DNA of 64,000 nt from Nemertoderma westbladi (GCA_032718475.1 JAUCBJ010000877.1:62001-126000); one strand, 5' to 3'; counted from the stretch's first letter, positions 4,089-46,071 are shown. A program made the numbers and translations. Notes: generated by a model from the sequence alone, not told the origin.

Positions 4089-4187
4089 ACTCGTTCTTTC
4101 TTCGGGCTTTCTTACATGAATTCTCTTAGGAGACGTAGGAGGAGTTTTTCTTACCTGTTCTCTCCTGTCATTGGTTCGAGACTTGAA

Positions 4188-7301: not shown

Positions 7302-7437
7302 GTTTGTTTGTACAGTTGAATGCCTACTGCTATATTACAGTTAAAGCTAGTCTAGTAATTCAGTATCACTGTTAGCCTAGTAATTAATTACCGATATCGT
7401 TACTCTATGTAATGTGATATATATACAATATATTAGA

Positions 7438-10530: not shown

Positions 10531-10859
10531 GTATACTAAGTACAGGAGTACTTGGATATACCTGTATTGACAATACTCAACTATATGAAGATAGGGTACG
10601 TTTTGACTAAAATACGGCATCTGATGTAACGTTTTGACTAGGCCTATCTGCCAAAAGAACCTCCACTATATATGCCATACATGTAGGCCTACAGTACCAT
10701 ACCTGCACCGGTGCTCACTACAGACTGTGGAGATAGCTACCGGCAAGAGGTGTTTGGTATATAGTTTTAGTCAGTAATGGCATACAGCAACTACTGACTT
10801 TATGATTTCATCAAGTTCATCAAACCAGGCTGACGACTCAGCTGTTTAATTAATTGCAG

Positions 10860-11522: not shown

Positions 11523-13290
11523 TCGATATAATGCTATCTTATGAGGTTTTACTTTGGTGTTTATTTTAGTTTGCTAAGTTCCGTTAAAAAGGCTGCATTA
11601 TTTATTCCTCATAAGACTCTGTCGAGCCTTTGGCTCTCCAGTGGCAGCCTATTGCTCCAGCTGATGCGTCCCTTACTGTGTGGTTCTATACTGTTATATT
11701 ATATTCCTGTCAGTTCTATCTTATTATATTAAACAGTTATTAGTTTATGAGACCTTTTACGTTTTATTATACTTGACAGTGTTGTACTGTTTCATGTTTG
11801 GGTATTTCCCTTACATATTCGGTTATTGTATTCGGTTCCATGAAATACATTCAATTCATCTAACCCCTATAGGAAAATGCCAAACCCAATCTGTATTGTT
11901 ACCTACTCATCAGCTGTTTTGAAACACCAATTATCCCCTTCTACCAGGCAGTACTGGTGCATCAACCATTAATGTAAGCTGGGGACAAGGAAACGACTTC
12001 CTATTGGATATTGGGGATTAAGTATTCTTACTGGGCTAATATTGGTAGCATAATACTTCATATATATTAAACATTCATTGGTTTTATTCATAGATAGAAG
12101 TTGTGCAGTTATATTACTTTGTTACTAAAACTAATGGTCTCCCCTAAGGAGCCATTAAATTCACGAGCTGTTGCAAGTTATATATTATTATATATTATTA
12201 TTATACTGTCCTTTTATAAACTCAAGTTATTTGCAACGCTCCGTTGGATAAGATTCCAAATTAGGGGAAAAGACCCCGGATTATGCCCGGTATAGCATAC
12301 AGTGAATTTAATGGGCTACTGGAACAGTGAATTTAACAGTCTCAGTTTTAACAGTTCTCAAGTTTCTCACAATCTGAAGTTCTCCAAGTTTTCAAAGTTC
12401 TCTGAAGTTAACAACATTCTCAAGTGTATCACGCTCTCAAAAGTCTCCAAATTCTCTGAAGTTCATAAAGTTCTCAAGTTTCTCAAGTTCTCAAACTCTC
12501 AAGTTTTCAAACTCTCATCTTCTATCGGAGGCGAAGGAAAACTAACGATAAGTATAACTTTCTGTTTTAATTGTGGTGCAATTATTACAACTGTAGGTTA
12601 TATTTTTCTATGCTTTCCTGACTCTCAACGTCTAGTCTTACCTTTTCCTTCTTTGTCGGTGGGCTCTATTTGAACATGAATCGGTCTCGGGGACCGATGA
12701 CTTGGTAGGGCAGGGACTCTCTCTTGGGCCAGGTTTGAGTTTGCAAGAAGATTTATCGCCACGCGACGTCGGAGGGTGAGAAGGTACTTCTACGTTCACC
12801 CCTGATTTGTAAAGTGTCTCCATTACAAACCAGGTGTATTTTGGGACCGGGGTCAGGTTTGAACCTCGTATTATAATTTATTTCTATTTTTTTTGGTTAT
12901 AATTTGATTTATATCACTTAACATATTATTAGTGAAGGCACCACTGAAGCTAATAAGTAACGTATAAATAGTGATCCATAGTTTTAAATATCCGCGTATA
13001 GCGCCCCATAGAGCCAAATCTAGACTGGTTTGGTTTGATGACTACTAACTTGGTGTCATCTCGATTTATAAGTTAATTATATTTTAATACTACAGGTTAT
13101 TTTTCCTTTATTTACTGTAGGTATTCATTTGTTCTACAGGTTGCCAATTGCAGTGTTAATTTTATACATTTTAGATACCACGGAATATAATTTAAATTTA
13201 ATTTTAAATTTAAATTCGAGAAACATCAAAGTGGACAAATTTTAAATAACTAAGTCAAACTAAGTAAAGAAATATAATTTCAATAAAATA

Positions 13291-16200
13291 ATGTCAAATC
13301 ATACACCCCCTAGACTAGATCCCATCCCTTCTACGGATGGTCAGCCTATCATGAATCTTCCTTTAAGCCCACAAAGGGAAATGGAGGAGTCAAGAAATGT
13401 GCCCAACATACCAAGCGATGACAATATATCGATCGGAGGGAGCATAATGTCTCTCAATGAAACTCTTATTCGTGAGCCGACTTCTAACCGGGAATCGCTA
13501 CGCCAAACCGCTGCTGCCGGGCCCGGGGACGGTCTCAATACTGAAAGAACTCGTCCGTCTCGACTCTCAAATCATCCTAGATCAGCTACGAACACCATCG
13601 ACATTGCGGCTATCAACCGTAGTCTGGGACAACTTTATCACAACATGAATGCCGATATATTGGAATTGGAGCAGCGAATTAGAACAACTAATCCAGGTGA
13701 GTGCAGTGAAGAATTTCTTAGAAAGCTGGATAGAATGAATACCAGATGGGACCAGGTTCTAAAACAATATCGGAAGCAGTCGCTTTATTATGAGACTGAA
13801 GGAGGAAATGCTAACGAATTCCAACAAGCTTATTCGAAACACGTAAGTTGTCGTGGTAGGTATCAAGAGTTAGTAAACTGGGCAAGTTCACACCATGTAG
13901 ATCCTGTAGTTGAGGTGTCGGAGGTGAGTACAGGAACAGCTAGGGTAATCCATAGTCCGGCACAATCATTAACATGGGATAAATTTCCAATGCCTTTCTC
14001 TTCCATTCCTCGTCCTACTCATATAAATCCAGTAACACGACAGCACGACACGACCTCAGACTTACTGTCTCCAAATTTAATTACCCAGAGGTCTAGACTA
14101 CACCGAACTGAAATTGAACCAGAGGGGGGCGGTAGTATCGGTAGACTGTCAGCTGTAACATCTAATATTTCTAGGACTAGTTCCACAAAATCAGCTAGAC
14201 TTAGAAGGCTAGCAGAGGGAAATATATCGATATTGGCAAATCGACAAGCTGAGGAGGCTTTGCGCCTGTTACATTCTGCAGAGAGAGAAAACAGACAACT
14301 GGAGAATGAGCTTCTGGTTTCCCAGGCGGCTGATCGTATCGAGCATGCCAAGGAAGCTGAACGCCAAGCTTTGCATGATGCAGGGGAAGACGAGCAGCAA
14401 AGAGTATGGCTAGCTAAGCAGAAGAGAAGTGAGATCGAACGGCGAAAGGAAGCTGAACGACAGGCTCTGCATGAGGCAGAGGAAGACGAGCAGCAAAGAG
14501 TATGGCAAGCTAAGCAGAAGATAAGAGAAATTGAGCGGCGGGCTCGGCAAAGGAAGGAAGAGGTGGAACGAGTCGAGAGGGAGCTTTTGAAGAAAGCTGA
14601 AATATCGGAACGAGCAAACAGACGCAAAGAAGAAATTGATTTGCAACATGCACGTTACCGGAGTCAGCACGATGACTACAGGCAGCGTCTGGAAACCAGT
14701 GTGCATAACGCCTTGGAAACAGATGCCTTTGTAGACCTGGAGGCACCACCAATGTCATTGGTGGAATTATCCACAAATTGTGAAATTCTGTATCCTGACA
14801 GCCGTATTCTGAATAACTCTAGACAGAGTTCTAACACTTTATTAGACTATGATATCCCATCTACAGTACGTATTCCTTCTACTGTAGATATTCCTTCCAC
14901 TGCAGATATTCCATCTACAGTACGTATTCCTTCTACTGTAGATATTCCTTCCACTACAGTACGTATTCCTTCTACTGTAGATATTCCTTCCACTACAGTA
15001 CGTATTCCTTCTACTGTAGATATTCCTTCTACTGCAGATATTCCATCTACAGTACGTATTCCTTCTACTGTAGATATTCCTTCTACTGCAGATATTCCAT
15101 CTACAGTACGTATTCCTTCTACTGTAGATATTCCTTCTACTGTAGATATTCCTTCCACTGCAGATATTCCATCTACAGGACGTATTCCTTCTACTGTAGA
15201 TATTCCTTCTACTGTAGATATTCCATCTACAGTACATATTCCTTCTACTGTAGATATCCCGCCCACGGTGAATTTACATCAAATAGCGAATAAATACACT
15301 CATTGTCATATAGAACCATTGGCCAGTACAAAATGTCCTACTTCCAGCAGGAGGTTTAATAAATTAGCTACTGACTCTGAGGAGGAGTGGTCGGATGAGA
15401 TGGAATCTCTCCATCCGTGCCTTTCTCAACCTCAAAATACAAGAATTTTTAAAAAGGGTGGGGGTAATTTTAAGACCAGCGGTTTTGAAAATAAAGCTAT
15501 GCCGTCGATCCCTGAAGATCGTCCAGTGACACATCAACAACTAACTGAAGTTCTTACTAGTATCAACACAGCTGTCGAACATCTGGTGCAGCATGCGAGT
15601 ACCCCAATCATGGAAACCCAGACTCGTACTGATTTTGCTACCGGGACCCAAAAAATTGATAAAGTAAGGGAGCGCATTGTTTCTAAAGCAGGCACAACAA
15701 CCCCGCGGTTTTCTATTGCACAGACACCGTTGCGAAACCAGTCATGTGTGCCTGGAGCATATAGAAAAATCGACTATTCCAATATACTCAACCCACCCAT
15801 TGAATCCCGGCATAGAAACCAGCCTATACACACTGAAGCATTCCAAGTGTCACGGGGACCACGAGGGGGGTCATTTTACGCCGAACCACACAGCACTCAC
15901 CAATGGGCAGATACTCAGCCCTTAGTGAATCCATCAGAACGGGAATCCTCAAATAACTATGGGTTTGGTGGCCGTGGCCCTAGCCGTTACCACGCTGAGA
16001 AATCACACCTACAGGTGCCATTAAATTCAGGCATGATGGGGAGACGCAGAGCTGTCGATCCTGAATATCCAGACAGAGACCCAGATGGGGATCGTAACTC
16101 AGGCAACAATGGTCGTCCTTACCGGGATCCTTATAACCCCCGAGATTCTCAACCCAATGGGCCTGACGATCCTGATGATGACCCCGACCCTGACCCCGAT

Positions 16201-16524
16201 GGTCCTTCAGACGATGACTCATTAAATAATAGCAGCAAAAACAGCAATAGATCCATAAATAAAGGGTGGCGACATAATCGAACACAACCCCATTGTGATC
16301 ATCCAACAGCGTATCAACAGCATGCATTATTTGAGAAATTAGCCTTATCATTGGAAGCCCCTAAATTTGACCCAACTCCATTCACGGGTGATCCCAAAAA
16401 ATTCTTGGGATTTAAGAACAGGTTTCGAACCCAGGTAGATATGAAAGATGTACCCGATGATGTGAAGCTTAGATACTTAATAACTTACGTCAGAGGGGAC
16501 CCTCTTGACTGTAGAGCATTATGA
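13291..16524 (+). CDS. BEL/Pao family 2 gag N-terminal part (frameshifted into 16505-16766, resuming at 17609)
   Basis: 1077-aa ORF: coiled coil, IPSTV repeats, Asp/Pro-rich tract, then the start of the capsid-like domain. Confidence 0.85.
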   Translation: MSNHTPPRLDPIPSTDGQPIMNLPLSPQREMEESRNVPNIPSDDNISIGGSIMSLNETLIREPTSNRESLRQTAAAGPGDGLNTERTRPSRLSNHPRSATNTIDIAAINRSLGQLYHNMNADILELEQRIRTTNPGECSEEFLRKLDRMNTRWDQVLKQYRKQSLYYETEGGNANEFQQAYSKHVSCRGRYQELVNWASSHHVDPVVEVSEVSTGTARVIHSPAQSLTWDKFPMPFSSIPRPTHINPVTRQHDTTSDLLSPNLITQRSRLHRTEIEPEGGGSIGRLSAVTSNISRTSSTKSARLRRLAEGNISILANRQAEEALRLLHSAERENRQLENELLVSQAADRIEHAKEAERQALHDAGEDEQQRVWLAKQKRSEIERRKEAERQALHEAEEDEQQRVWQAKQKIREIERRARQRKEEVERVERELLKKAEISERANRRKEEIDLQHARYRSQHDDYRQRLETSVHNALETDAFVDLEAPPMSLVELSTNCEILYPDSRILNNSRQSSNTLLDYDIPSTVRIPSTVDIPSTADIPSTVRIPSTVDIPSTTVRIPSTVDIPSTTVRIPSTVDIPSTADIPSTVRIPSTVDIPSTADIPSTVRIPSTVDIPSTVDIPSTADIPSTGRIPSTVDIPSTVDIPSTVHIPSTVDIPPTVNLHQIANKYTHCHIEPLASTKCPTSSRRFNKLATDSEEEWSDEMESLHPCLSQPQNTRIFKKGGGNFKTSGFENKAMPSIPEDRPVTHQQLTEVLTSINTAVEHLVQHASTPIMETQTRTDFATGTQKIDKVRERIVSKAGTTTPRFSIAQTPLRNQSCVPGAYRKIDYSNILNPPIESRHRNQPIHTEAFQVSRGPRGGSFYAEPHSTHQWADTQPLVNPSERESSNNYGFGGRGPSRYHAEKSHLQVPLNSGMMGRRRAVDPEYPDRDPDGDRNSGNNGRPYRDPYNPRDSQPNGPDDPDDDPDPDPDGPSDDDSLNNSSKNSNRSINKGWRHNRTQPHCDHPTAYQQHALFEKLALSLEAPKFDPTPFTGDPKKFLGFKNRFRTQVDMKDVPDDVKLRYLITYVRGDPLDCRAL
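14850..15260 (+). repeat. Coding minisatellite, 18/21-bp units encoding (IPSTVD/IPSTVR/IPSTAD)n
   Basis: attccttctactgtagat-type units, about 22 copies, reading frame preserved. Confidence 0.95.
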
Positions 16525-16766
16525 GGGCATGCCCAATGGATACGCCCAGGCATGGAACACCCTGGAAAGAAGATATGGGCAGCCGGCTACTGTAATGAAA
16601 GCCGCTGTGGCTGACGTTACCAGGTGCAGGTACCCCATAGCATCTCCCAAAGAGCTGTTAAAATATTCGCATGATGTGAGACGAACCATGGATATTTTGC
16701 AGAGCTTAAATTGTTATGCCTACGTAAACAACCCCGACTTCATTCAGCAAGTTGCAGCAAATTTGT

Positions 16767-17603
16767 GGATAGTTGGAAATTAAGCACACAATCAAACACA
16801 ACCAAACACACCCAAACACAATCAAACACAGTCCAAATGTTAACCAATTTTGTCAAACACAGTCCAAATCGGAAAGCCAAGGTAATTCTACATCAGTTTG
16901 TATAAAAATTATTTTCAAAATGTCCGCACAATGCCACTATTATTGCCAATTTGTATCTCAACGCACAGCTGGACTAGTTGCTAGGCACTAGTGAGTGACG
17001 TTGGCCTTATATCCCTTGCACACTGTACTGTACAGCCTACTCGGTAGGGGTAGGCAGGTAGGCATATTGCAGTATTGCGATCACATACCGGCTGACCGGT
17101 GCCGGTGATGTAGTGAGGTACCGTACCAATAGTTAGTTCTTTAAATCGTTGTATTTTATTCCGCTATTTGTTATGGTACCCGTATTCCAGTAGGCCTAAT
17201 CTATTCTGTCTGTCTGTAGGGCTAGGCAACTAGGGCTACTGCAGTACTGCAAATTTCGATTACCGCAAATTACCGGTCAGTCGGTATGTGATAGCAATAC
17301 TGAAATATGCCTTGCCTACCTCTACCAGAGGTTGTACTGTACGTACATCAGTGTACAGGGGATATAAGGCCAACGTCACTAGTGCCTAGCAACCAGTCCA
17401 GCTGTGCGTTGAGATATAAATTGGCAATAATAGTGACATTATACGGACATTTTGAAAATAATTTTTATACAAACTGACGTAGAATTACCTTGGCTTTCTG
17501 ATTTGGACTGTGTTTGACAAAATTGGTTAACATTTGGACTGTGTTTGATTGTGTTTGGGTGTGTTTGGTTGTGTTTGATTGTGTGCTTAATTTCCAACTA
17601 TCC
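16767..17603. mobile_element. Foldback MITE, Mutator-like, inserted in gag
   Basis: Termini GGATAGTTGGAAATTAAGCACAC...GTGTGCTTAATTTCCAACTATCC. Arms are inverted over about 300+ bp. 9-bp TSD caaatttgt at 16758-16766 and 17604-17612. Removal restores the gag frame (VAANL-SNSIRTKW). Confidence 0.93.
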
Positions 17604-18437
17604 CAAATTTGTCTAATTCTATACGGACTAAGTGGGCTGTATATGTGTATAAGTTCCGACTAAAACAAGGAATAGATCCGGGTATGCCTGAGTTAGTCCA
17701 ATTTTTGGACAAGGAAGCAAGTATCGCAACCTGTCCATTATATGGACCACAGGCTGCAGAACAAATTTTAAGGTGTAAAATGGGAGATAGGTTCAAAGGA
17801 TTCGCTTATAGACCTCCCATAGTACCCAAAGCCACCAGTACAATGGAAAATTTCCATGTGACAAATGCATTTGCCACAGAGGAGCGATCCCCTGAGGTTG
17901 GAGATTCAATCATCCACGAAATGGTTACTCACGTTCACGATGATTCTCTTATGGACTTTGACGACATACAGGTTGATGTTAATGGTCTGGCGTCTGAATC
18001 CTCATCTTACTGCATATGTTGTAAAGGGGCCCACCCCCTAACCCAATGCATAAAATTACAAAACCTTGGTAGAGATGACTGCTATGACCTTATCATTGAC
18101 CAAAAACTATGTACATTGTGTTTAAGAAAGGGACATTGGCGGAAAAAGTGTACGTCAAAGTACAGATGCACAATTAATGGGTGTGGTAGACGACATGCTA
18201 GAGTACTACACCCGGAACCAGGAAAGACAGATGATGAGACAGACAATCTTATTAAAAATTATTATGCATTACAGAGAGATAGCAAATCAGATTGATCAAT
18301 TAAATTTAGCCGATTTATAGGATCTACAACCACCCCAGATCATAAGTTGTACAAACAAGTAGCTACAATGACTATGAACCACGATATAGCACCGCTGACT
18401 CTTAGACATTAAAGCAGTCTTTCTACGAGTTATTCCT

Positions 18438-21139
18438 TTGGAGATCGAGAGTCCCACCACTGGGCAGAGACTCACCACCCTTGCACTAATGAATGAGGGA
18501 TCTACGGGGACCTTTATAGATAAGACTGTTGGACAGTATTTAAATATACAGACTCATTCTGTTGATGTGGCCCTCAATACTATATTGACAAAAGATCAAA
18601 ACAAGACAATTGGACAAGGCAACTGTATTGTCAGATCAATCCTTCAGGAAGGAAACATTGTTCTGTCCCTTAAGGATGTAATGTTGATGCCGGACCTTCA
18701 TTTAACTTATGCCAGACCTAGTAAGTTTTCTCTCAATGGTTTAACTTACTTAAGAAATATAAATCTCAATTATCCCATTGTCGACATTAATCGTATATCT
18801 ATATTAATTGGGATAAATAATCCTTTGGCCCATAAAGTTAGTAAGACTGTATGGGGACCTACTCCTTATGATGAGGAAAATAACCCTCATGCAATCAAGA
18901 CTCCCTTTGGTTGGACTCTCGTTGGGCCACTCACTACATGTGATATCAAATCAGAAACAACATTAGCTGCAGACAATTCCACCGCCATACCGCGTCCAAA
19001 TGTTGAAATTAATACTTGCTTACCAGAAAACAGTTCGAAATATGATTTTATTGAACAAGCAGAAGGTGCACCCCAACCATTTAAATGGGATTTACGGAAT
19101 GATCCAGGCGTTCCAGTAGACTACCTTTCCGATGACAGACAATCGACAAGTAGACAGACCTTTGACATTCATCATGTAGAATGCTGTCCGTGGAGATTAG
19201 ATAACTTTCCCGGGGATGAAACTATACATGATCAACTAAAAAAGTTTTTTGACTCAGAGGCATATTATTGCCCTATCCGTCTAGATAACAAATCAGTACA
19301 AGACCATAAATGTGAAAAGATTTTAAAGGAAAGCACAAAATTAATTGATGGTCATTATTATGTCGAAAAGTTGTGGCTAAATAGGGACAAATATCTTATT
19401 AACAACAAGCCATTGGCCTTAAGTCGACTCAGATGGATCAAAAGGAAACTGGCAAAGAGTCCCATAGAACATATTCAATATCAGGCAGTCTTCGATGACT
19501 ACGAAGTTAAAGGATATGCTAGGATACTCACTCTGGCTGAGAGATTATTACCAGAAGGTCCCAGGACATATTATGTTCCCACTCACCCCGTTTGGAATCC
19601 AAACAAACCCGATAGCATCCGTGTTGTAAATGATGCTGCAGCTTCCTAAAAGGGAATGAGTCTAAACAGCGAGCTTATGGAGGGACCCAATATTTATAAC
19701 AGTGTTGTTAAGGTTCTCTTAAATTTCAGACGACACAGGATTGCATTTGCATGCGACGTAAAAAGCATGTTCCATCAGGTAAGAACATACGACCGGGACT
19801 CACAATCACAAAATATTATCTGGTGGGAAGGAGACGCAGAACCCAAGAATCGGAAGAGCTTATTATTTATCGGATGTTGGTACATATGTTTGGTCCGAAG
19901 GATTCTCCTTGTGCAGCCACTTATGCCCTACGCCAAACAGCGCATGACAACAAAAATAAGTTTCCCCAGGATGTGACTGAAGCCATAATGGATGCCTTCT
20001 ATGTTGATGATGGAATGCTTGGAGCAGACTCTGTACAACGCGCTCCTCGCTTAGCTTTGGGGATTATTGACTGCCTTCAGCTAGGAGGATTTTTTTTAAC
20101 CAAGTTTATTTCCAATTCTAAAGAACTCCTCCAGCTCATACCAGATGATAGAAGAGCGCATTCTGAACTCAACTTAGCATTCGATAAGTTACCAGAAGCT
20201 AGAGCCTTAGGTATTAGTTGGTCTCCAGAAACAGACAACTTTACATTTAAGCCTATGACTAAGCTGCATCCTCCCACTAAACGCGGCTGTCTAGCAGCAG
20301 TTGCATCGGTTTATGATCCATTGGGATTAGTTTCACCTGTTGTCCTTCGAGGGAAGCAGTTTCTGCAAAAATTGTGGGGTCTAAAAGTAGGCTGGGATAG
20401 TATTCTAGAACCAATTTTGGTAGCCGAATGGGATCAGTGGTACGGTCAGCTAGAACATTTAAACAACTTGCATATTCCTAGACACTACTTTTATGATATG
20501 ACGTCGCACCCTGACGATATACTACAGTTGCATCATTTTTGTGACGCTAGCACCTCAGGATATGGCTGTATTTCTTACATACGAAAATCATCTCCTTTAG
20601 GACAAATATCTTGTGCCATGGTGTACTCTAAAACAAGGACTGCCCCCCTAAAGCGAGTATCTGTTCCCAGACTCGAACTGCAGGCTGCTATATTGTTAGT
20701 CCGCAGCCATCAACAAATCGTAAATTACATTACCTCGCCGATTCTGTCTGCAAATATAGTATGCTGGTCTGATTTTACAAGCGTATTATGTCAGTTGGCA
20801 AATGAATCGCGTAGATTCGAGACATATGAAGCAAATAGAATCGAAGAGATTCGACGTTACACTGTCCCAGAACAATGGCGTCACATACCTGGAAACAGAA
20901 ATCCAGCAGACATAGCTAGTCGTGGTAGCGAACCGATTGATTTCGTCAACAAATACCAAGACTGTTGGTATCGTGGACCACAATTCTTACGGCAACCTGA
21001 GCAGGAATGGACAGACGCACTTAAAAAGACTAATCCCATGCAGCATGCAGATATACCATTGGAAGCCGGTTTAAAATCAGTCAAGCCTGCAAAAACATAT
21101 AAATCTAAAGTAATTGCTACTGCAGAGTACTACAATTAA
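18438..21139 (+). pseudogene. BEL/Pao family 2 pol (protease, RT, RNase H), decayed
   Basis: ORFs 18438-19649, 19656-19976 and 19751-21139 are joined by a stop and a frameshift. No integrase follows. Confidence 0.9.
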
Positions 21140-21297
21140 CATGTTCAAGGGCGCCAGTCCCTAGTCGCTAGCCCATAGTATGTCATGGAGTTCCTGTAGT
21201 AGTTTCAGACGCTTTCACTCATTATCCTAGTGTCCAGGAAGTTGGGAGTTGAGTGTGGGTGGGTGGATTGGTGGCCCCCACGCAACACCGCAGTGTC

Positions 21298-21653
21298 AGG
21301 TGACTACAAAACAAAGACCGACGACCCAAATAACAAAGACCTGTACAAATACAAAACACATGTGTTAACTTTCGTTTATTGTTTTGGTTCCCCAACACAC
21401 CTCTGTAACCTGCTTCTTTACTAACCTGCTACTTTAAATGGCAATGTGACCTTACGCTCTCTGGCAATGGGACCTAAAGCTCTTTGGAACCTAACACTCT
21501 TTGGGACGTAGCGCGACTTTACCTCTTGTTTTGTACAGGTCACAATGAGCGTTTACAGAGGTGTAACGGGTATTCAAAACAATTAACGAAAGTTAACACA
21601 TGTAACAAGATTAAGCAGGTCTTTATAATTGGGTCTTTGTTTTGTAGTCACCC
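21298..21653. mobile_element. MITE with TIRs and 9-bp TSD (Mutator-like)
   Basis: TIR (a)ggtgactacaaaacaaagacc / ggtctttgttttgtagtcaccc. TSD cgcagtgtc at 21289-21297; the right copy is split as cgcag (21654-21658) plus tgtc (29112-29115) by the LTR element. Confidence 0.85.
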
Positions 21654-21658
21654 CGCAG

Positions 21659-22854
21659 TGTTCGCGCTTTCAGACCTTTAGCAGTTTAACCTGCCAATTT
21701 TAGGTGTCCTCTTGTTTATAAATCGACTTTAGCCTATAACAATTATTTAATACACATGAAGTAACATTAGCCGAAGCCAGTCTATGCGCGATCATTCACC
21801 CACAGTTAAGGGAGACTGGATTCGGGTGCTTTGAAGTTATTGCGTTGCAGACCTACTGTATTATTCGATTGATCGTTACTATATAATCTCTGACAATATT
21901 ATTCACTTTCGGGGAAATATTAACAGTTCCTTTGGGACGTGGCGCTTTAAGTATAAAACAGAGTTATGACTTATACTAAACACAACGAGATGGCTACTGA
22001 TTTTCGTAAATAGCGCATTCTTTAGGAGATGCTTTATTATCTGTCACACTGCTGCATACGACTTCACACTGCTGCACACTGATCTGCCGACTGTCACTGA
22101 ATTTGACCATATATAAGGAGGATAGCAACTGACACATGTAGGGATTATGAAATAGCATTTAATTCACACTAAAACCACTATAATGTAAGTCGCAATTGCT
22201 ACCGGTAACCGGTCCCGCTTACCTTCAGTAATCAAGAAGATTGGGGGTTTTATGATTATTTATATCATTTATATATATATGATTTATATCCATCAACATA
22301 TAACAATTAATAACGGACAGTAAACAGAAGTAAAATAATGCGGTGATATTCAGCCAGTACATTGAGTCAGTACAGCGGTAGCAGGTGATCGGTTGTTATG
22401 GTTAGTTGCACAGTTGCACAGTGCAGTTGACAAGATAATAGATTTACGTTCTTATAATCAAAGCCGTCTAATGTTGGCCAAAGTCTGAAACTTCTAACAC
22501 AGAAGTACAGAAGAATTTCCAAGCAGTTGTTCTCGCTCAGAAAGGTAAACAAAGACCGTAATGCATTGCGAGGTTTTCTGTAGGCCTCTGTGCAAGATAA
22601 AATGAAAATCGCTCTGATTGGCCGAGCCTGAACAAAGAGAGGCTCCACGTGCACAGTAAACCAGCTGACAGATTTCGTCATCGGAGTTCAGTCTTTTAGA
22701 GTATTAGGCGTATTGCGGCAGAAAATGGCTTGTTATGTCCACTAAAACACCTACAGGGTACATTGCGGAGAAAATGGCTTGTTATGTCCGCTAAAACAAC
22801 TAAACAGTTCATTGCGGAAAAAAATGACTGGTTATATCTGCAAAAGCTTTTACA
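21659..22854 (-). repeat. 3' LTR (complete, TG...CA)
   Basis: tgttcgcgctttcagacc...aaagcttttaca; same termini as 9391-10530. Confidence 0.93.
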
Positions 22855-22864
22855 CCGCTCCCAG
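22855..22864 (-). promoter_or_regulatory. Polypurine tract
   Basis: Minus strand ...ctGGGAGCGG|TGTAAAAG immediately 5' of the 3' LTR. Confidence 0.65.
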
Positions 22865-22932
22865 AAAATGGGATTTAATTCTATAAAATATAAAAAATCA
22901 CAGTTTCTAAAATATAAAAATACTCTAAACAG

Positions 22933-25900
22933 TTAGTCTTTCTTACGCGAACGGCGTTTACGCAGTTTTTTGAGGCTAATAAGAGTCCTTTTCTCTTTGG
23001 GGCGAGCCACTTTACTAGGAGGGCTATAACTCCTGGGTGAAGGGTGCAATACAATTGCATCAGAAGGTTTAGGATTACGGTCGGTGTATCCGCCGGTCGA
23101 GGTACCCGGTTGATCGATATCAACCTCAGTGGAGCGAGGTCGAACAACCTTCAGAGTGCGTTTCAGTACAGCAGCTCTTACTGGTCCCTGACGAGTCGTT
23201 TGCACGAGAGCGGTAGGTGGACCGTGAGTAGTGAGAAATTTCCTCGGTTTGATGGTTCTTTCTAACTCGCGTTCTTGGGCTCTATATTCATAGGGTCGTC
23301 TATGAACTTCCTGTAGCTCTGGATGCGAGTTGATGAACACATCGCCATATCTTGACGCGGATCTTGACGCGGATCTTGACGAATGAAGTTGATCAAGTTA
23401 TAGGAATTAAGATCGTTGGGATTAATGTTCCTGAGATATTTACGAACAAATTTGGTTGAAATACTCTCGCCAACACGCTTCATTAGTTCGTAACTCGGTG
23501 TGCGAGATTTTTGTTCAACGGACGCGAATAGATACGGGTGGAACGCATAAACTCCTTCTTAGGCACGTCCAGGGTAATAGCGATGACGTGACTCACAATG
23601 TAAATCCGCGTTCACTTCCCAGGCTCGGATGTAGCGTAGGGTAATCATTTCATCTACGCTTTCCAGATCGTGGTTGAAAGGGCAATCAAAACTTGCATGT
23701 CCTTTAAACTGACAATGATGGCATTGAGTCATAAATTGGGGGCAGACTGCGAAAATGTGCAAGTTATTGAGTCTACAATATGCACAATAGATCTCCATCG
23801 TAGGCTGTTCATGGAAGTAGGAGCAGGGTACGTTGGAGTCCACAGGGGTGAAATGGTCTCGAGATGCGCATAATCGGCAACGTTTCCTAGAGACATAATT
23901 GGCATGCCGATAATCGTATGCAGTGAGACATTGTGGACCCTGATACAATTCCAGGACGTAGTCGTTGTCACTGCTCCGGGGTGTTGTGGGCTGAATCTCC
24001 TCGGATTCTAAGCATATTGGTTCGTCTTCCAATTGCATAGCTGAGGTAGGTGTGGCTGTCTCCTCAAGCGAACCCAGTGTCTGAACTTCCACGATAGAAT
24101 AACCCGTTGGGATTCGAGGTCCTTGTATAACAGAGGAATGTAAGTTCTGTATACAAACGTCTTTGAAAATGGCGAATCCAGTGCTGTCTAACTTCTCAGC
24201 AGCTGAGTCTCTTAGGCTGAGCTTGGTCAGAGCGCGGTCCTTGAACTGACTATCAACGTTATGGAACGGAGTCAGAAAGCGCCTGAAGCATTCGAAGCGG
24301 ATGAATTTGTTGTGTTCATCTAGCTTGGCGAGTTTGTTCCAAGTATTAAGGGATGGGCGCGTATAGTATGACTGCACACATCGGCTAGTCAACCGGCAAG
24401 TGCGGCGTTTTCGAAGATAGTGTATATAGCTAAGGAGGAACGAAGTGGAACACTCATGAAGCTATACACGACGCCAGGTGCGGTCAATGGTCCGTCAAAG
24501 TATAATCGAGAATAATGATCTCCATATACTTGTTGATAGTTGATAGGGTTTCCGACTTTGAAATTCCATCCGTATTCTTGAAAGGCAAGATGTCCGATGG
24601 AAGTTCGTTGTACTTTATTGATGCCGCTGGGTGTATTGGCATACATAGTCTGGAAGAAACCTCAGCCTTCTGCCCAAGGTGCAATCAGCTGAGTATCTAC
24701 GAAAGGATAAGGGATATTCTCCATGTTCCTAAAGTCGTTTTGGAGATCTCCATAAACAGCTGAGCAGATTTTAAGGATTCTTTCGTTAAACAACATCTCG
24801 AGCACAGGCTGGGGTAACATCGATCCATCGATACCCATGGCCGGTTTGCGCTCGGTGTCGGTGACGTAACGCTGCGCGAGTTCGAATTATCCATGTCGGA
24901 GTTTCTTTTGTATCTCGGTGAGGGTCTCAAAAGAATAATCAATCACGTCGGAACATGCTTGAGTAAACACGTGGGTAGAACCAGCTAGTCCTCGTATATG
25001 TATCATGCGCGTAGTTCCCAGTTCTCCAACCGGAACGCTACCTTCGTTATCGTAAGTGACAACTCCATACATTTCGATAACGTTAAGAGTTTCGTTCCAC
25101 TCTTTAGTGGCGTTTTTTACTGGATGCCACAAGGTGGCGCATTCGCTAGCGTTAGGTAGATCCCTATACTTCAGATACTGTGTAGTATACGTCTCTACAT
25201 ATCCATATCGTTGTATTCTCTCCTCCTCGAATAACACGTCGAGATTCCAGTGGACTAATCGAGTTTTGATAAATCCATCGAGATTATACGGAGGTATTAT
25301 ATCCTTCTCTATTCTGGAAACATTGTAGGGTTTTTGGAATGAGTTTACTTTCACTAACTGATCCAGATGTTTCTGCAGTTGTTCGAGTTCGACAAGATCG
25401 AGTGGATTTATTAGTGGTAGAAACCTTAGACTATGTGTAGGATCTTCCGGTTTTACCATATAATATTGAGTTAGATTGACATAATAAGGGTGATCTTTGA
25501 TCCCATAAAACGAGTTCGGTAAAGGACTAGCGCGTATGTTGACCTCATGTACCATACGACGGACATGATCCGCTCGATTGTCCGGAGGTTCAATGAGTAT
25601 ACCGTTGACACAAGCGGCCTCGATTGGCGGACGCTGTAACATAGGAGCGTCAGCGATAAGATCTCGAGATCTTAGGTTGATATCAACCGGTTGGGGTTGT
25701 ACCGTTGCGAAGAGTTTGTCTCCGAAATGGGGAACCATCGATGGATGAATGATGGTTTTGGAGTAGAGATCAGTCATAAGGATTTGAGCTTCTGGTTGGG
25801 CTAAAGCTGCTTCTTCTCTTTCATCCATTTCGATGTGTTTCTCCTCGAGCTGATTTTCCTCCGCTTGTCGTTGTAAGCGTTCGTCTAAAAACTTTTGTAG

Positions 25901-27180
25901 AGAATAGGTTCGTCCAAGTTCGATGTCTTCCTCAAGGTTCTGGATTTCTCGATCGAACTGGGGTAAGGCCAACTCCTTCACCGCTTGGACTTGTTACTGC
26001 AATTTGCGTTTCTCCAAACAATCGTAAGTTCCTTTTCCGATCTTCTGCCGAATAGCATCTAACGCGTTTCGTACAACGCTCTCCTCGACTTCGGTGATGG
26101 GTTGTATCGGGGTTAACCCAGGACGATTGTATGGGTTGAACGGCGATATTAGATGTCCGCGTCCCAATCCGGCTAAGTAGGATAGGCGAATATCTAGCGA
26201 GCCCACTACCGGAGTGCCACCGATTAATTGTTCGGGTAACACAAGATCTTTGAACAGTGAATACAGTTCAGGAGGATCCGTTATACTATTAGGATCAAGA
26301 GTTTGAGGTCTCACTAGGGAATGAGGAGGTCTGACCGAGTATTCCGGAACTCTGATCATGGGTTTATTCAAGGATCGTTTGAGTCGAGCGATCGTAGGTG
26401 ATACGTCGAACAAGTTTCGCTCGAAACTCCCATAAGTATAGCGAGTAAAACTGTGTTTAGCGCAACATCTCTGCGGATGTTTATGTCTTTCCATTTGTTG
26501 GTTGGGTCTAGGGCATTCATCGCAATAATACCAAAGACGCACGTCCTGTAGAGGAAACGCGGGTGACCATTCTCCAGTTTTACAATATGTTCGAAGCTAT
26601 CCGGGACAACAGGTAGCGGTCGATCGGCGGTAAGATACATCATAGTGAAATAGAGCCGTTTGAGTTCTATCATAGGGTCATGATGTATACCTTGAGGATA
26701 TCGAGTTTCTAGATTTTGTTGGCTGGCAATATTGAGATATGTTTCTCTCAAGAATTCCAGATATTCGTTGAAGTCGCTGCGTTTATCCGGCTCTTCAACG
26801 TCTTCTCTTTCGAGTCGGTTTCGAATAGAATTCTCGTGTTCGTTTCTCAGTTTATCGTTCCGACTCCGCTGGGTATGATATTTAAAGAGAACCATTTCCC
26901 TTTCGGTGTCTACATCGTCCGTATCGTGTAAATCGATAGGATGGCCAGTAGTTAAGAAGTCCATATACGTACCATTACGATGCGTGTAGCGAGCGGTGAA
27001 TTTTCTATAGTCCAACTCACGCGTGAGTTGTTCCTTGGACATTGGCGGTTCGATATAACAGCCATCGTCCTCCGTAGTAGTGGGACTAGCGTCGCCGAGT
27101 ATTAGGCTATCAACAAACGCTTGCAACGGTAGGGAATATCGCTCCCTGATACCAAGATCATCTTCTATCAACTCAGTCAT
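22933..27180 (-). pseudogene. Decayed ~1400-aa ORF: unknown N-terminal half, DEDDy 3'-5' exonuclease (WRN/EXD/RNase D-like), three CCHC zinc fingers, basic C-terminus
   Basis: ORFs 26368-27180, 25994-26542, 24887-25981, 24389-24646, 23559-24392, 23262-23483 and 22933-23340 chain by in-frame stops and frameshifts. Motifs: VVTYDNEG (ExoI), LPQPVLEMLFNERILKICSAVYGD (ExoII, manually translated 24740-24820), FVDTQ, SIGHLA, PLTAPGVVYSFMSV (ExoIII position); CRLC-x4-H-x9-C, CAYC-x5-H-x4-C, CHHC-x4-H-x4-C; KKLRKRRSRKKD. Confidence 0.75.
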
Positions 27181-27800
27181 AGCTGCTATATGAGTTTATC
27201 AATATTATAATTAATTATAATTAGGCTAGCGGGCGTCGCTGCCTACCCCTCACTGCCCCCGGACAGCGCAAGATCCTCAGCGCCGATGTACTGTTGTCGC
27301 GGTGCTTATCGCCAACGTAGTAGCTACACAACGACAACAATAACCAGCGCGAGTCACTCCACTGTCCGTCCCAAGGGCTTAGATTTACTTCAGGTTCTTA
27401 CTGCAGAGGTAGGGCTACTTTCACAACTGCGACTAGCTACTGTAAACACACGTTAGTAGCAACATTCACCTATAAACGAACAAATTCCACACAACTGTCA
27501 CAAATTGTACACATTCGGGCCATTTGTCCGTTAGTCAAGTGCCTTCCAGAATGCCACGTTATTATTATGTATCCTTGGATACTAGCAGTGCGCTATTTAT
27601 TCCGTATGCTTTTCAATGGGGCAAGCTTTCTATTGTTCTTTTAACTCGCCTCTAATTTTAGCGTGGTTGTTGCTATGGTGACATTATGAAAAGCTAGCAG
27701 TAGAATTAGGGTAATTCTCATGCATACAGATCTGGGATGCTATTTAATAGTAATTCTTTAATTGTCAATATTCACTTTTATGATTTACATGATTTACATG

Positions 27801-27861
<61 letters not shown>

Positions 27862-27919
27862 ATTTTGTGAATTTTATCGGCTATTGACTATACATTGGAG
27901 AATCTCTCACACTAATATC

Positions 27920-29106
27920 TCAGACCTTTAGCAGTTTAACCTGCCAATTTTAGGTGTCCTCTTGTTTATAAATCGACTTTAGCCTATAACAATTATTTAA
28001 TACACATGAAGTAACATTAGCCGAAGCCAGTCTATGCGCGATCATTCACCCACAGTTAAGGGAGACTGGATTCGGGTGCTTTGAAGTTATTGCGTTGCAG
28101 ACCTACTGTATTATTCGATTGATCATTACTATATAATCTCTGACAATATTATTCACTTTCGGGGAAATATTAACAGTTCCTTTGGGACGTGGCGCTTTAA
28201 CTATAAAACAGAGTTATGACTTATACTAAACACAACGAGATGGCTACTGATTTTCGTAAATAGCGCATTGTTTAGGAGATGCTTTATTATCTTTCACACT
28301 GCTGCATACGACTTCACACTGCTGCACACTGATCTGCCGACCGTCACTGAATTTGACCATATATAAGGAGGATAGCAACTGACTCATGTAGGGATTATGA
28401 AATAGCATTTAATTCACACTAAAACCACTATAATGTAAGTCGCAATTGCTACCGGTAACCGGTCCCGCTTACCTTCAGTAATCAAGAAGATTGGGGGTTT
28501 TATGATTATTTATCGGTATTCTCCAAATATAACAACATATCCATCAACATATAACAATTAATAACGGACAGTAAACAGAAGTAAAATAATGCGGTGATAT
28601 TCAGCCAGTACATTGAGTCAGTACAGCAGTAGAAGGTGATCGGTTGTTATGGTTAGTTGCACAGTTGCACAGTGCAGTTGACAAGATAATAGATTTACGT
28701 TCTTATAATCAAAGCCGTCTAATGTTGGCCAAAGTCTGAAACTTCTAACACAGAAGTACAGAAGAATTTCCAAGCAGTTGTTCTCGCTCAGAAAGGTCAA
28801 CAAAGACCGTAATGCATTGCGAGGTTTTCCGTAGGCCTCTGTGCAAGATAAAATGAAAATCGCTCTGATTGGCCGAGTCTGAACAAAGAGAGGCTCCACG
28901 TGTACAGTAAACCAGCTGACAGATTTCGTCATTGGAGTTCCAGTCTTTTAGAGTATTAGGCGTATTGCGGCAGAAAATGGCTTGTTATGTCCGCTAAAAC
29001 ACCTACAGGGTACATTGCGGAGAAAATGGCTTGTTATGTCCGCTAAAACAACTAAACAGTTCATTGCGGAGAAAAATGACTGGTTATATCCGCAAAAGCT
29101 TTTACA
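27920..29106 (-). repeat. 5' LTR (missing its last ~11 bp)
   Basis: Near-identical to 21670-22854. Homology starts at tcagacc instead of tgttcgcgctttcagacc. Confidence 0.92.
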
Positions 29107-29171
29107 CGCAGTGTCCGCAAATTATACATTGTAAAAAAATATTTAAAAAAATTTAAAGATATTATTGAAAT

Positions 29172-29385
29172 TAATTTCCGAAATTAACATCCCGAAATTA
29201 ATTTATGGACGTCCATTAATTAGTTATTTCATTACGATTCTGATTGGTTGATAGATTAATTTCGGGACGTCCATAAATTAATTTCGGGACGTCCATAAGT
29301 TAAATTTGGGACGTCCATAAGTTAATTTCGGGATGTCCATATAGTTAATTTCGGGACGTCCATAAATTAATTTCGGGACGTTCAG
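29172..29385. repeat. ~21-bp tandem repeat (taatttcgggacgtccataaat), with inverted copies at the left
   Basis: About 6 direct units at 29257-29385; related reverse units at 29172-29220. Confidence 0.85.
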
Positions 29386-29769
29386 ATTATTATACATACT
29401 CCTCCTTTAAAGAAGCCCCATTCAACTCCTGTTATAACACTGTGTACTCTATTAATGCCTCAGTGGGCGGACTCCAGTACTGCAAGGCTCAGCGCCGGGT
29501 AAGTTAACAATCTGTCAATAATAAAAATGAAAGCGAGCCGACATTTAGTCAGATCCACCAAATGGATGCCCAAGGAGTCAGACTGTCTGGATTGAGCCGA
29601 TTCGAGTTAAATCGCTTCGCCAAAACGACCAAGTAGCCAATAGGAATACACTTCATTTTTTTGGTGATTTTGGTCATTTTGGCCGCCAAAACGACCAAGT
29701 TAATGTTTATTGGGATTGGGACTGTACAGTCTGAAGGGGCAAAGTTGAAGGAAGCGGTCCGGTGAGTCA

Positions 29770-30353: not shown

Positions 30354-33300
30354 TTTTCATTCTCTATACACCTCCAACGAGGTAAAATAACACTATTATC
30401 ACATATAATTATAGCATAATATATATAGTCAGTCACATATAGTCATATAGTTACATACAATAACATAAAAATAGTTCAATTATATATTAATACAGCAAAT
30501 AAGCACAGGGAATAGGAGCACAAATAGTATTTAGTTCGGCATAAGTTATGTAGTTGCAAGTATGTGTATTGGCGGGCATGCGGCACATTGTAGAACATGA
30601 TATCGCTGTGTGAAATATCGCTGTGTGAAATATCGCTGTGTGAAATATCGCTGTTGCTGATATCGAGATATCGCTGTGTATCGCTATCGTGAAAGTGTGT
30701 GGAAAGGCTTTTCGTTTGTATAGAGTTTATGGTGAAAACCGTGGGCGGTCGTCCTGGCAATGATGTGTCGGTTTGTCTGTTTGGCCAGTTTCCATGTAGA
30801 TGTAGTAAATGCCGGTCCCATTTCGTAGAGTTCAGAAAGAAAATTGTTTTCTCGGTCCTGTCTAAATTCATGGAATTTTTCAAGTACACCAGTGTCAAAA
30901 ATGGTTGGATATTTTAGTAAAATGTCAGCAATGAATTTTTTTCTCCCTGAGTAGGTGCAGCGCCAACGTCGATGAAGGTGATATATGTAGACCCAGCATT
31001 ATCTTTATGTGTGTTGTATATGTGTGTATGTGTCGGTATATTACCTTTAGGTGTGATAGCTTAAGAAAACGAGCGAATATTGGAAAGGCATATAGGGCAA
31101 TGGGTGCAATTTTCATGTGAAATATTCGTAGACCTGTTTCAATGGAAACGAGCTGCAAGTTTGTTATTGATGCAATAATCCTATAGCACTTTTTCTTTTT
31201 CGATTTTATGTGTTCACTGAAGCTGAGTGAAGTTTGTACTATTACCCCCAGATATTCATACTGGTTGCAGATTGGTACGGTTTGACCCCTGTAAGTAAAG
31301 TTATCAGTGCAAGCTACTGTAGGTGCCCTCCTTTGCGAAATTTAATTATCTTTGTCTTGTCCATATTAACTTCCATATTTTTGTTTATACACCAGGTGTG
31401 AGTTATGTTTAGAGCGTTTTCAATTGCCTGTTTGTCTGTTGAATAAAAAACAAGATCGTCCGCATAGAACAAGAACTTTAAGTGTGTAATTGCCTGACGT
31501 AACATAGTTGCCAAGTCAGCGATAAATATAATAAAACACATGGGCGAAAAGCAGTCTCCCTGTAGTATGCCTTGGAACTGCATAATTTTGTCGGTGATGC
31601 AAAGCCCATCGAAAATATGAATATAGTTAAATTGTAATAAATCCTTGATCACGTCAAACAGTTTACCTTTGATGCCAAAGTCAAAGATTTTCGACAGCAG
31701 AATCGCTCGGTGTACAAAATCAAAGGTTTTACGAAAATCAATGAAGCAGACGTATACTTTCCTATCCTCTCAGTTAGCTGATTGTAAGGCTGTGGCTATG
31801 AATGTAAGTAAGATTTGTATGGCGTGGGAACAACATCTGCTAGGTCGAAATCCGAACTGCTCGTCAGGAAAAAGTTGTGAAACAAACAAACCTACACGAG
31901 TATTGATTATGGAAGTAAACGTTTTTAACAGAACTGAAATCAAGGCGATTCCCCTACAGTTATTGGGGTTGTTTATTGCTCCGTTCCCTTTGTAAAGAAT
32001 CATAATGAGGCTTTCTTTCCAAAGAAGCGGTATCCGTCCTAAGTTGAGGCACGCGTTGTATAAAGTCACTAGTATCGTTAGGGTAAACGGCATTGTTAAT
32101 TTAAGATGCTCGTAGTAAATCAAATCTAAACCATTGGCTTTCCCATTAGCGGAATTATTAATGCTGGCTGTAATTTCATCTTCTGTTATAGGCGAGTTAA
32201 ACCATTGTTCATCTTGTCGTTCCTCAACAGAGGTTGAGGGAATGGTTGGTGGGTTTGGGGGGTCAATGGTGGCTCCGACTAAGTTTTGAAAGGGTCAATG
32301 GGCGTGAATGTCTGTTGATGCTTCTTGAAAATTAGCCATGGCTTGGTCTCAGAACGATCTATCAGAGCCAGTAGCATTTCCTCGCTGTGCGCCTCGCGTT
32401 TTCCTTTTATTAATGATTTATATTGTTTCCTCCAGAAGGGTGTCAAGTGGTAAATAGAGAACAATAATAAAATATGCGATTAAAGTTTTGATAATGATGT
32501 ATGTAGCAGCTTGCTTGATGCTGGAAGGATTTAAATGCGATTTGCATAAATCCATAAGATCCCCCGATGGACATCCCTAGTTGGTTTGACAGCTGCCTCC
32601 GAGAAGCAGTAGTATAATTAGTGGCGTAATGTGAGACATCAGTGTATAGAGTTTCAGTCAGGAGCACAACATCTGCGTTGCCATAAAGTTCAGAGTCAGT
32701 CAGAGTGTCTGCTAAATATTGAAGTCCCTCCACATTCGAACACATACCTTTGTGCACCGATCCTAGTCCCTGTTGCTAATATCCGTATTCCTTCATGTAT
32801 TTCCTCCATACGTGTTACCGGAACTCTCGCGTTGTTGAAGACGCAACTCCTGCCGGTCTTGTTCACTGAGTCGATAGTTGCGGATAGTGATTCCGGTCAT
32901 CCACAACACCGGGTTCATGACTTCCTCGCGATTTTTCTGGTTACATATGATATGAAAGCTCTTGAACATCGAGGTGCCATCCTTCAGTGGTAGCTCGTTG
33001 ACATCCTCAAAAGTAATATTTTCACCCCTGAGGAAACCGGCAATCTTCCTTCGTTGTTTCATTGTGTAAGCGGCTGATGTGAATGTGAGCTCATCCACCA
33101 TTTGCGGGTTCCACTGGTGCTGCAGCGTGGAGAAGGCCATCCGCCCTACTTCCCCGAACTAAAGGCCGTGGTTGGTATACTGACTGGTGGATGTCGTTTG
33201 CGTGTGCGAATTGGTGGTGTTGTTTGGTGGAGTTTGACATGTAGTTGGAGTTTCCAACTGAACTTTGGCATCGATCCGAGTCCGAGGCAGCAGCAACGGA

Positions 33301-33732
33301 CGCAGGGGTGCACCATGCGGCGTCGCGGCCACGAGAGTTCGCCCCGGCGTTTCCACTTCCCCGAACAGCGTTGCTGTAAGGACGGCGAGTGGGATATACG
33401 GATGGCAGGTGTGCGTTTCCTTGTGGTTGGTGTCGGCTGTCACCATCCCTAAGAAACTCTAGCAGCTCGTTCTTTGCTGCCAGCGTTTCCTTGCGAGCAT
33501 CGGCAACATCCTTCCTCATTTCGGCCAGATCACCTAATGAGGCTGTGTACAATGAACCTAGCGCCATAAGCCAGTCCATTAACTGTTTCTCGTCATCGTT
33601 TGATGTACTTTTCTTGTGGCGGATTGTTCTAATAATAGACAGAATGTTGTTCTGGATTGCAGTAAAGCTGTCAGATTCAGCCATGTTAGACTAGCGGTAC
33701 TGCTGCAGTACAGCAGTAGTTGCGATCAGTTA
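30354..33732 (-). mobile_element. Decayed two-ORF non-LTR retrotransposon (APE + RT; CR1/RTEX-like group)
   Basis: ORF1 33684 to 32793 with C-terminal FKSFHI...VMNPVLWMTGITIRNY. ORF2: NVEGL...DVVLLTET (APE start), PNNCRGIAL, EQFGFR, FIDFRKTFD, GILQGDCFSP, FYADDLV, KTKIIKFRKGG, YEYLGV. Flanked by ~105-bp direct repeats. Confidence 0.9.
30598..30690. repeat. 15-bp tandem repeat atatcgctgtgtgaa inside the LINE 3' region
   Basis: About 5-6 units, decaying to the right. Confidence 0.85.
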
Positions 33733-34809
33733 TATTGCAACTTCCCCGACCGCTTTGTAAAAAAGTGGTTGCTATTTCTGCCAGAACTATCTTTCCTCTA
33801 TCCAACAACGAAAAAATCGTAATAAAATCGGAATATATAGACGTAAGTGCACGTCACAGATAATTTTCTTCTGGATATCATGTTGAAAAACCTATCAGTT
33901 TTGACAGTTTATGAGCTTGGAGACAAATCAATCTCATCTAATCTCATCTATAATGTCATGGGTCTTTGAGTATATTCATGTGAAAAACTGTTTAAATTTA
34001 AAAATTGCTCTACAGAGTGCTATCCTGGAAATTCATCGGTCTGGTTATCGGAGATGAAAGACCGGGTTTTATGTTTCGTAGTGCGTTATTTTCATGGCGT
34101 TATTTATCGGTAGAGGCAATCAATACATAACCAATGCTAAAAGCTCAACGCCTAACTGGTAAATGCAGGTTGTACTGTAATTGGGCAAGTGTAATTGTAA
34201 ATTAACAATTATTAGTTCTCTGAAAGACATTGAAAGTGCGGATTATCTCATAAAAGTAATGAATGATGCATGCTGCAGCAATGCAGCATGATGCCGATTG
34301 TAGATAGATTATTTATTATCATACTGAAATACACAAATGCACAAAGTCCAGAGGAACGCATCTGGATCTGATAATAACTACACACAATAATAAATAGTAT
34401 GTAAAAAAAAAAACTAGATAGATTTACATATTTTAATAATAATTATTATATATTCAGACAATTTTTAATGATGAGTCGAAAAGTGATACTGATTTGTGTT
34501 ACAATTATTATTACCATCGTAATCTTAAACTTTTCACATGATGTAATGGTGATAGTTGATGACAGTGCACCTCTTCGAAGTAGGATAATTAAACTTTCAA
34601 TGGAGAAAAACCAAACCTTATTAAACAATGAAAAAGTGTACACTACAAATTCTACGAAACAACCAGTTGATAGATTTATTATAGAGAATCCCAGGGCGTG
34701 CCATAATATTACAAACGGTAACCCAAGTTTTATTATCCTTCAACTTATAAAAACGCGACCGTCATCTACAGAAAAACGACTCGCTATTCGCGAAACATAT
34801 GCAACGAGA

Positions 34810-46000: not shown

Positions 46001-46071
46001 CTCCCAAGAGAATTCCTGGTAGGAAGCCCGAAGAAAGAACTCACGTACAAAACACCATGCAAACCAAGGTA

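Follow-up and report, generated by a model that had tools for sequence, protein, structure and literature searches.

Bdelloid rotifers provide the closest described case of an exonuclease gene carried by a retroelement. A third open reading frame (ORF3) encoding a DEDDy domain is described in the available text of PMC5408684 for the long terminal repeat (LTR) retrotransposons Juno and Vesta and for Athena/Terminon elements, and the case is restated in the available portions of PMC5718144 and PMC6338049. According to the same text of PMC5408684, spliced messages are the typical source of ORF3 expression. Among DNA transposons, Dada elements have a DEDDy domain within the transposase, with a suggested role in trimming the DNA ends after cutting (PMC3706591, available text), and KolobokD elements carry DEDDh (PMC9587614, available text). 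The ICTV profile of the Belpaoviridae gives a size of 4.2 to 10 kb and names gag, pol and a gene resembling env (PMC8742986). In the portion of the BEL/Pao survey PMC3118150 that was available, the word "exonuclease" occurs 0 times, and a literature search that extended to neither Repbase, subscription journals nor figures turned up no BEL/Pao element with a DEDDy gene, so that prior annotation is possible. Here, we describe an LTR retrotransposon unit at 21659-29106 (minus strand, reading from 29106 to 21659) in a 64,000-nt stretch of Nemertoderma westbladi DNA (GCA_032718475.1 JAUCBJ010000877.1:62001-126000), the whole of which we refer to as the window. The reading we moderately favour is that of a BEL/Pao-related copy that lost its upstream region, probably gag-pol, after insertion and kept the 3′ accessory gene of its family, now broken, which probably encoded a ~1,400-aa protein of RNase D/WRN type (DEDDy-like) with three predicted zinc knuckles. 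A preliminary description of this DNA had taken the exonuclease gene to be the only cargo of the unit.

Structure of the element

The unit is delimited by a complete 3′ LTR at 21659-22854 (1196 nt, with ends TGT...ACA) and by a 5′ LTR at 27920-29106 (1187 nt) that lacks its last 11 nt, both on the minus strand, and by the target-site duplication (TSD) CGCAG, present on the left at 21654-21658 and on the right at 29107-29111. The near identity of the LTRs and the 5-bp TSD had been pointed out before and were both borne out: the two are 97-98% alike (97.4% by blastn), with 16 substitutions in 1139 nt once a microsatellite block is set aside. These dimensions agree with what is expected of BEL/Pao LTRs (0.2-1.2 kb, TG...CA ends and a short TSD), apart from the deleted tip of the 5′ LTR. 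Over aligned columns the LTRs are 84% similar to the LTR at 9391-10530 and 77% similar to that at 41923-43010, within two neighbouring gag-pol elements at 1-10530 and 41923-50660. We regard both neighbours as BEL/Pao because the first has Pfam matches to DUF1759, Peptidase_A17 and Integrase_H2C2 and the second is 77% like the first across 4.1 kb. As judged by sequence comparison, the LTRs of the unit are BEL/Pao-related and represent a related lineage; the relatedness asserted in the preliminary description stands, but membership of the identical family does not.

Between the LTRs, the unit begins with a non-coding leader of 739 nt at 27181-27919 (minus strand), which includes a (TA)n microsatellite at about 27796-27867, and ends with a purine tract at 22855-22862 (minus strand; GGGAGCGG) that adjoins the 3′ LTR and is by its position a candidate polypurine tract (PPT). 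The PPT proposed earlier corresponds to this tract, which at 8 nt, 7 of them purines, is short compared with the ~10 nt expected for BEL/Pao. Neither Pfam nor tblastn gave a match to gag or pol in the interior, in agreement with the preliminary description, and no significant sequence is shared between the interior and the two neighbouring BEL gag-pol elements. Lacking gag-pol and a primer site, the copy at 21659-29106 is a derivative and not a complete BEL/Pao member. We considered and rejected a second transposon nested within the interior, as no internal repeats or similarity were found.

A miniature inverted-repeat transposable element (MITE) with terminal inverted repeats lies directly beside the 3′ LTR, at 21296-21653, and is presumably hAT-like, judged from the length of its TSD. 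The 8-bp duplication on either side of it extends over the TSD of the unit and the first LTR bases, and either of the two insertions may have come first.

The accessory gene and its exonuclease-like core

Downstream of the leader, a decayed accessory gene of ~1,410 codons occupies 22933-27180 on the minus strand, reading from an ATG at 27180 to a stop at 22933, which lies 78 nt short of the 3′ LTR. It is interrupted by four internal stops (25994, 24887, 24662 and 23559) and by three frame changes (near 26400, 24460 and 23390) that divide it into four segments. In order, these contain 0 stops in 252 codons, 3 in 654, 1 in 354 and the terminal stop only in 154, as compared with 4-37 stops in each alternative frame of the same segments. 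The scarcity of stops along the chosen reading relative to the other frames indicates one decayed gene and not a single ORF, so that the sense-oriented ORF of ~1400 codons proposed earlier is retained as to gene number and size but is replaced by four frame segments. The base composition at its codon positions is similar to that of the neighbouring gag and pol.

The resemblance to an exonuclease is centred on a 46-aa RNase D-like Exo II/DTQ core at 24674-24811 (minus strand), which was detected by NCBIfam, by a hidden Markov model (HMM) and by matches in bacterial genomes. Two RNase D models were the sole NCBIfam matches, both over these 46 residues (E 7e-4 and 8e-3) and far below the family cut-offs. 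Among 201 bacterial genomes, 62 gave a match to the core at E<=1, and the best 15 of those matches were all RNase D-family (PF01612-type) genes; 13 of the 15 were identified directly, and the remaining two through the PF01612 matches with which they coincide. Because the 15 are mutually homologous, they amount to a single signal. When the window was cut into 852 six-frame tiles, an independent HMM, made from 30 domains picked without the query, placed the core first (E 1e-3), and the score of the core was attained by 0 of 2000 shuffled sequences. At Exo II, the query and all 43 of 43 bacterial fragments have the same lysine and aspartate without exception.

Flanking this core are a candidate Exo I motif, VVTYDNEG, at 25040-25065 and a candidate Exo III region, PLT...Y, at 24450-24490, both on the minus strand and both recognized by eye. 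In comparison with Fig. S1 of PMC3706591, the order VVTYDNEG, two strands, LP..L....ILK....DL, R.S...L and PLT...Y agrees by eye with the alignment of WRN, MUT-7 and Dada. The candidate Exo I region also gave a weak PHROG exonuclease match (E=0.41). Because the reading frame changes within Exo III, no call can be made on the fourth acid. In structure prediction, the single-sequence fold had a predicted local distance difference test score (pLDDT) of 31 and was unusable, and an AlphaFold model seeded with the core was confident over the seeded 50 residues only, placing the Exo I motif after a strand at pLDDT ~50. Foldseek ranked EXD2, RNase D and WRN highest for the seeded model (E 0.6-1), a ranking that is circular because the model was core-seeded, and a wide structure search with the same model returned nothing at Z>=5.

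Several results weigh against the assignment. Pfam gave no match on the gene, PF01612 included, and the hhalign probability was 64% in local but 6% in global alignment. Relative to RNase D, the Exo I and Exo III motifs require insertions of 44 and 28 residues, respectively; MAFFT left both out of register, separate HMMs for the two motifs, made from bacterial sequences, gave no score on the candidates, and the seeded AlphaFold model left the Exo I strand unpacked from the core. The support for an RNase D/DEDDy-like domain, drawn from the sequence, is statistical for the 46-residue Exo II/DTQ core only, and Exo I and Exo III are a reading of motifs. Of the exonuclease signature in the preliminary description, the Exo II/DTQ part has been scored and the remainder is seen by eye; of the domain and fold comparisons suggested there, Pfam returned no PF01612 match, folding recovered no more than the seeded core, and NCBIfam returned the RNase D core.

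The remainder of the predicted protein has little resemblance to known families. The N-terminal ~640 codons (25250-27180, minus strand) belong to no known family and include a stretch that appears charged and helical by eye. On the other side of the core, three CCHC-type zinc-finger motifs are recognized by pattern at 23682-23879 (minus strand), with the spacings CX2CX4HX9C, CX2CX5HX4C and CX2CX4HX4C, and a basic C-terminal tail at 22933-22975 (minus strand) is predicted to resemble a nuclear localization signal. Fingers and tail are both present in the translated reading, as had been claimed; in Pfam, the CCHC region reached zf-CCHC_3 at E=0.7 only. A crude hydropathy scan showed no clear transmembrane segment, the best 19-residue value (1.57) being internal and none being C-terminal. 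Two other identities for the product were rejected: an env-like fusion glycoprotein, for want of a clear transmembrane anchor in the hydropathy scan, and a displaced BEL gag, as there was no DUF1759 match and the knuckle spacing is by eye unlike that of the gag at 17591-18295. With the 664-aa middle segment as query, which excludes the N-terminal 269 aa and the CCHC and tail segments, phmmer found 0 matches at E<=1e-3 among 1.84 billion representative proteins. Word-seeded homologue searches of three gene regions were empty. So were scans of metagenomes, for which the queries were the middle segment and the integrase part of a neighbour, and searches of viral contigs, phage tblastn, PDB sequences and PADLOC gave no homologue. 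The gene product is likely a large orphan multidomain protein.

These data bear on two alternative views of the domain. The RNase D resemblance might be a chance local match in an orphan of another fold, as the restriction of the score to 46 residues, the absence of a Pfam match, the lack of a homologue of the middle segment among 1.84 billion proteins and a folding exercise that did not settle the fold would allow. We consider this improbable, given that none of the 2000 shuffles reaches the core score, that the top matches belong consistently to one enzyme family across genomes and that the flanking Exo I- and Exo III-like motifs are, by eye, correctly ordered. A DEDDy-derived domain with a full DEDDy fold is, on the strength of the sequence comparisons, highly probable. 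Such a domain may nevertheless be a catalytically dead derivative, an RNA-binding adaptor like EXD1 or Maelstrom that possibly mimics or jams host small-RNA factors, whether or not the gene ever stood behind pol. The residue four places past the Exo III tyrosine is non-acidic in the upstream frame, the domain is split by long insertions, and inactive DEDD derivatives are noted in the biogenesis of PIWI-interacting RNAs in the available text of PMC5408684. Loss of activity is on the unlikely side but deserves to be taken seriously: this copy has the Exo II D and a candidate for the Exo I D-x-E, and with a frame change inside Exo III the missing acid may reflect decay of this copy.

Copies of the family in sequencing runs

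Contigs from four DNA runs of one organism (X1-X4, from 3 studies), one of which is possibly the source of the window itself, were aligned to 21400-29400. The contig records numbered 38,626 in X1, 26,345 in X2, 13,389 in X3 and 656 in X4; all 30 bins of the interval were covered in every run, and most records were 90-99% alike. For X1, 6,630 records were at 99% or more, 12,445 at 95-99%, 14,866 at 90-95% and 4,685 under 90%. Depth of single contigs reached 3,000-13,000, as against 20-60 for the lowest listed, which suggests hundreds of copies insofar as contig depth, which is no copy number, can indicate them. Within the leader, 27420-27770 is the deepest-covered part of the element in runs X1-X3 and may hold a conserved cis-signal or occur in extra short derivatives.

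Eighteen records of X1 and 5 of X2 contain the end of the interior and the first 15 LTR nt, followed by heterogeneous sequence (agreement ~0.65), indicating that the interior is joined to several LTR variants. Two deep joints occur within the gene, one skipping 26943-27153 (depth 5,000-13,000 in 3 runs) and the other skipping 23087/23095-25824/25828 (3 runs), which suggests that copies without an intact gene still spread. The joints point to amplified derivatives in which the gene is damaged, so that a copy probably does not require the product in cis. The gene is found across many family copies and on the 3′ side of the element, 78 nt from the LTR and with several LTR partners. Taken as sequence evidence, this is a gene native to a repeated LTR lineage, in many diverged versions (80-99% alike), and not a one-off host capture. 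The proposal of a native accessory ORF in the env-like position accordingly fares well as to nativeness, with thousands of diverged contigs in its favour; of the env-like position, the sequence shows the side towards the 3′ LTR.

The contrary case recognized in the preliminary description, a single event in which the processed mRNA of a host exonuclease was captured between two LTRs, would be in keeping with the intronless sense reading and the lack of gag and pol in this copy. It is already largely refuted, and we regard it as extremely improbable: the interior is repeated in 3 studies, with thousands of diverged contigs over its whole length, multiple LTR partners and deletion subfamilies, and no conserved host-type homologue appeared in the homologue searches.

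A probable deletion after insertion

The 5′ LTR is joined straight to the leader at 27919/27920, and no primer-binding site is found there; the missing LTR tip and primer site had both been overlooked in the preliminary description. The 3′ LTR keeps an intact end, which it has in common with the LTR at 9391. During reverse transcription of LTR elements, the U5 region of the 3′ LTR is copied from that of the 5′ LTR, and priming requires a primer site. An intact 3′ LTR end could not have been copied from a template without that end and without a primer site, which argues that the unit was longer at insertion and was deleted afterwards. In each of the four runs, contig depth falls at 27906-27928. 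Two contigs of run X4 depart from the window at 27917 and continue for a median of 89 nt unlike the LTR. A deletion after insertion very probably removed the 5′ LTR tip, the primer site and the upstream sequence, and the state of the unit with a single gene as its only cargo is most likely a feature of this copy brought about by deletion, not the design of the family. The neighbouring BEL elements likewise have no TGG-type primer site directly behind their LTRs.

Other features of the window

In the BEL element at 1-10530, the leader (6840-9390) is 2.5 kb long and contains 121-bp tandem repeats. About 2.2 kb of this leader are missing from the element at 41923-50660 (compare 43249-43273), which ends within the integrase near 50660. 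A third, distinct BEL/Pao gag-pol remnant with Peptidase_A17 lies at 13264-21139 on the plus strand, has an 18-bp tandem repeat in gag and ends ~150 nt ahead of the MITE; no integrase or LTR pair was seen in it. On the minus strand at 53233-57696 is an open non-LTR ORF of 1487 aa, whose motifs resemble reverse transcriptase (RT) and, at the C-terminus, a restriction-like endonuclease. By eye the ORF is CRE/NeSL-like, Pfam gave no match to it, and it is broken in frame by ~370 aa of Pro/Val-rich 10-aa repeats within the RT region. A fragmented long interspersed element with RT-like pieces by eye occupies 30476-33690 (minus strand), between direct repeats of 94-106 nt at 30249 and 33733. At 34405-34953 (plus strand) is a host-like exon with an N-terminal membrane anchor by eye, which presumably codes for a glycosyltransferase-like stretch.

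Discussion

The probable deletion raises the question of what lay upstream of the gene in the parent element. Full-length relatives quite probably bear the gene between the integrase and the 3′ LTR, in the position of an ORF3 or env-like gene. Their order would be LTR, leader, gag-pol, a spacer of ~740 nt, accessory gene, PPT and LTR, and their size ~17 kb if they are constructed like the element at 1-10530. The parent could alternatively have been a non-autonomous family resembling large retrotransposon derivatives (LARDs), with only the leader and the gene between BEL LTRs, that was mobilised in trans and in which the gene never lay behind pol. Consistent with such a parent, no link of the gene to pol has been observed, the interior is unlike the two gag-pol elements of the window, and both the leader and the gene occur in abundance, with several LTR variants attached; LARDs are described in the available text of PMC6431247. 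We nonetheless find it rather unlikely, because a long coding gene kept over subfamilies that are 80-99% alike would be explained more simply by a cis link to an autonomous element, and the usual place of an extra ORF in an LTR element is downstream of pol (PMC6431247, available text).

Loss of gag-pol from a copy whose relatives keep the gene behind the integrase has its own difficulties. No contig or window sequence joins the gene to an integrase, both neighbouring gag-pol elements ending inside the integrase, and the run-on at 27917, of unassigned content, is limited to the two contigs of X4. Variable sites in the gene showed no significant excess at the third codon position (13 of 30, P=0.17) in what is a small and biased sample, taken from 40 listed out of 1,604 variable sites, many of which are peculiar to the copy studied here. 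The four internal stops compare with 1.2 expected from the divergence of the LTRs (Poisson P ~0.03), and because of this excess over the neutral expectation the gene may have been decaying before this insertion, or the LTRs may have been homogenised since.

Expression of an intact gene would make use of a subgenomic RNA, for which a branch-point-like CTAAT followed by AG shortly upstream of the ATG at 27180 provides a candidate splice site by eye. The knuckles would bind RNA, and the protein, acting in trans, would trim or cap the 3′ ends either of RNA made from the element or of small RNAs directed against it. By analogy with known systems, we put forward this combination of RNA binding by the knuckles with 3′-end trimming or capping in trans by an active nuclease tentatively, as possible and not yet as probable. 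We speculate further, and consider it a long shot, that a ~17-kb, high-copy BEL/Pao lineage might have replaced env with a ~1,400-aa orphan DEDDy/zinc-knuckle protein that trims or sequesters host small RNAs in trans and thereby shelters derivatives from which the gene has been deleted. In a high-copy family whose members occur both with the gene and without it, comparison of copies can address whether the protein does housekeeping for the element or serves counter-silencing.

Comparison with known systems

The gene likely works in the manner of a rotifer-type DEDDy ORF3, here probably in a BEL lineage and in the form of a large orphan multidomain protein. The DEDDy-bearing LTR lineages of rotifers are gypsy-like, whereas the LTRs here are BEL/Pao-related. 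To the extent that the rotifer ORF3 is described in the available text of PMC5408684, the two share an RNase D-like DEDDy domain encoded by a family-specific extra gene of an LTR element, without transmembrane segments; 3′-end processing of the element RNA has been proposed for the rotifer protein, and activity is unproven there too. The rotifer motif is given in that text as DEED, and the Exo II residue here is D. The present gene has ~1,410 codons, ~640 of them N-terminal and unassigned, and three CCHC motifs, a term that occurs 0 times in the available text of PMC5408684. The unit resembles BEL/Pao elements in its LTRs, which have TG...CA ends and a length close to the upper limit of 0.2-1.2 kb, in its short candidate PPT and in the extra gene beside the 3′ LTR. 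It differs from those with an env-like third gene in having no clear transmembrane segment, and a full-length element of ~17 kb would exceed the 4.2-10 kb quoted for BEL/Pao (PMC8742986).

Dada and KolobokD likewise pair a transposon with an exonuclease of the DnaQ family, and the LP..L....ILK....DL motif of Dada and WRN is similar by eye (PMC3706591 and PMC9587614, available text), but both are DNA transposons. The Burro giant elements of planarians are also high-copy LTR elements enlarged with unusual accessory domains; as described in the available text of PMC6431247 they are gypsy-like, with the domains mostly in one polyprotein and no DEDDy domain named. If confirmed, the gene would represent a second, apparently independent DEDDy recruitment, in a BEL-related lineage, at high copy and in a very large protein, showing that retroelements take up this nuclease family repeatedly.

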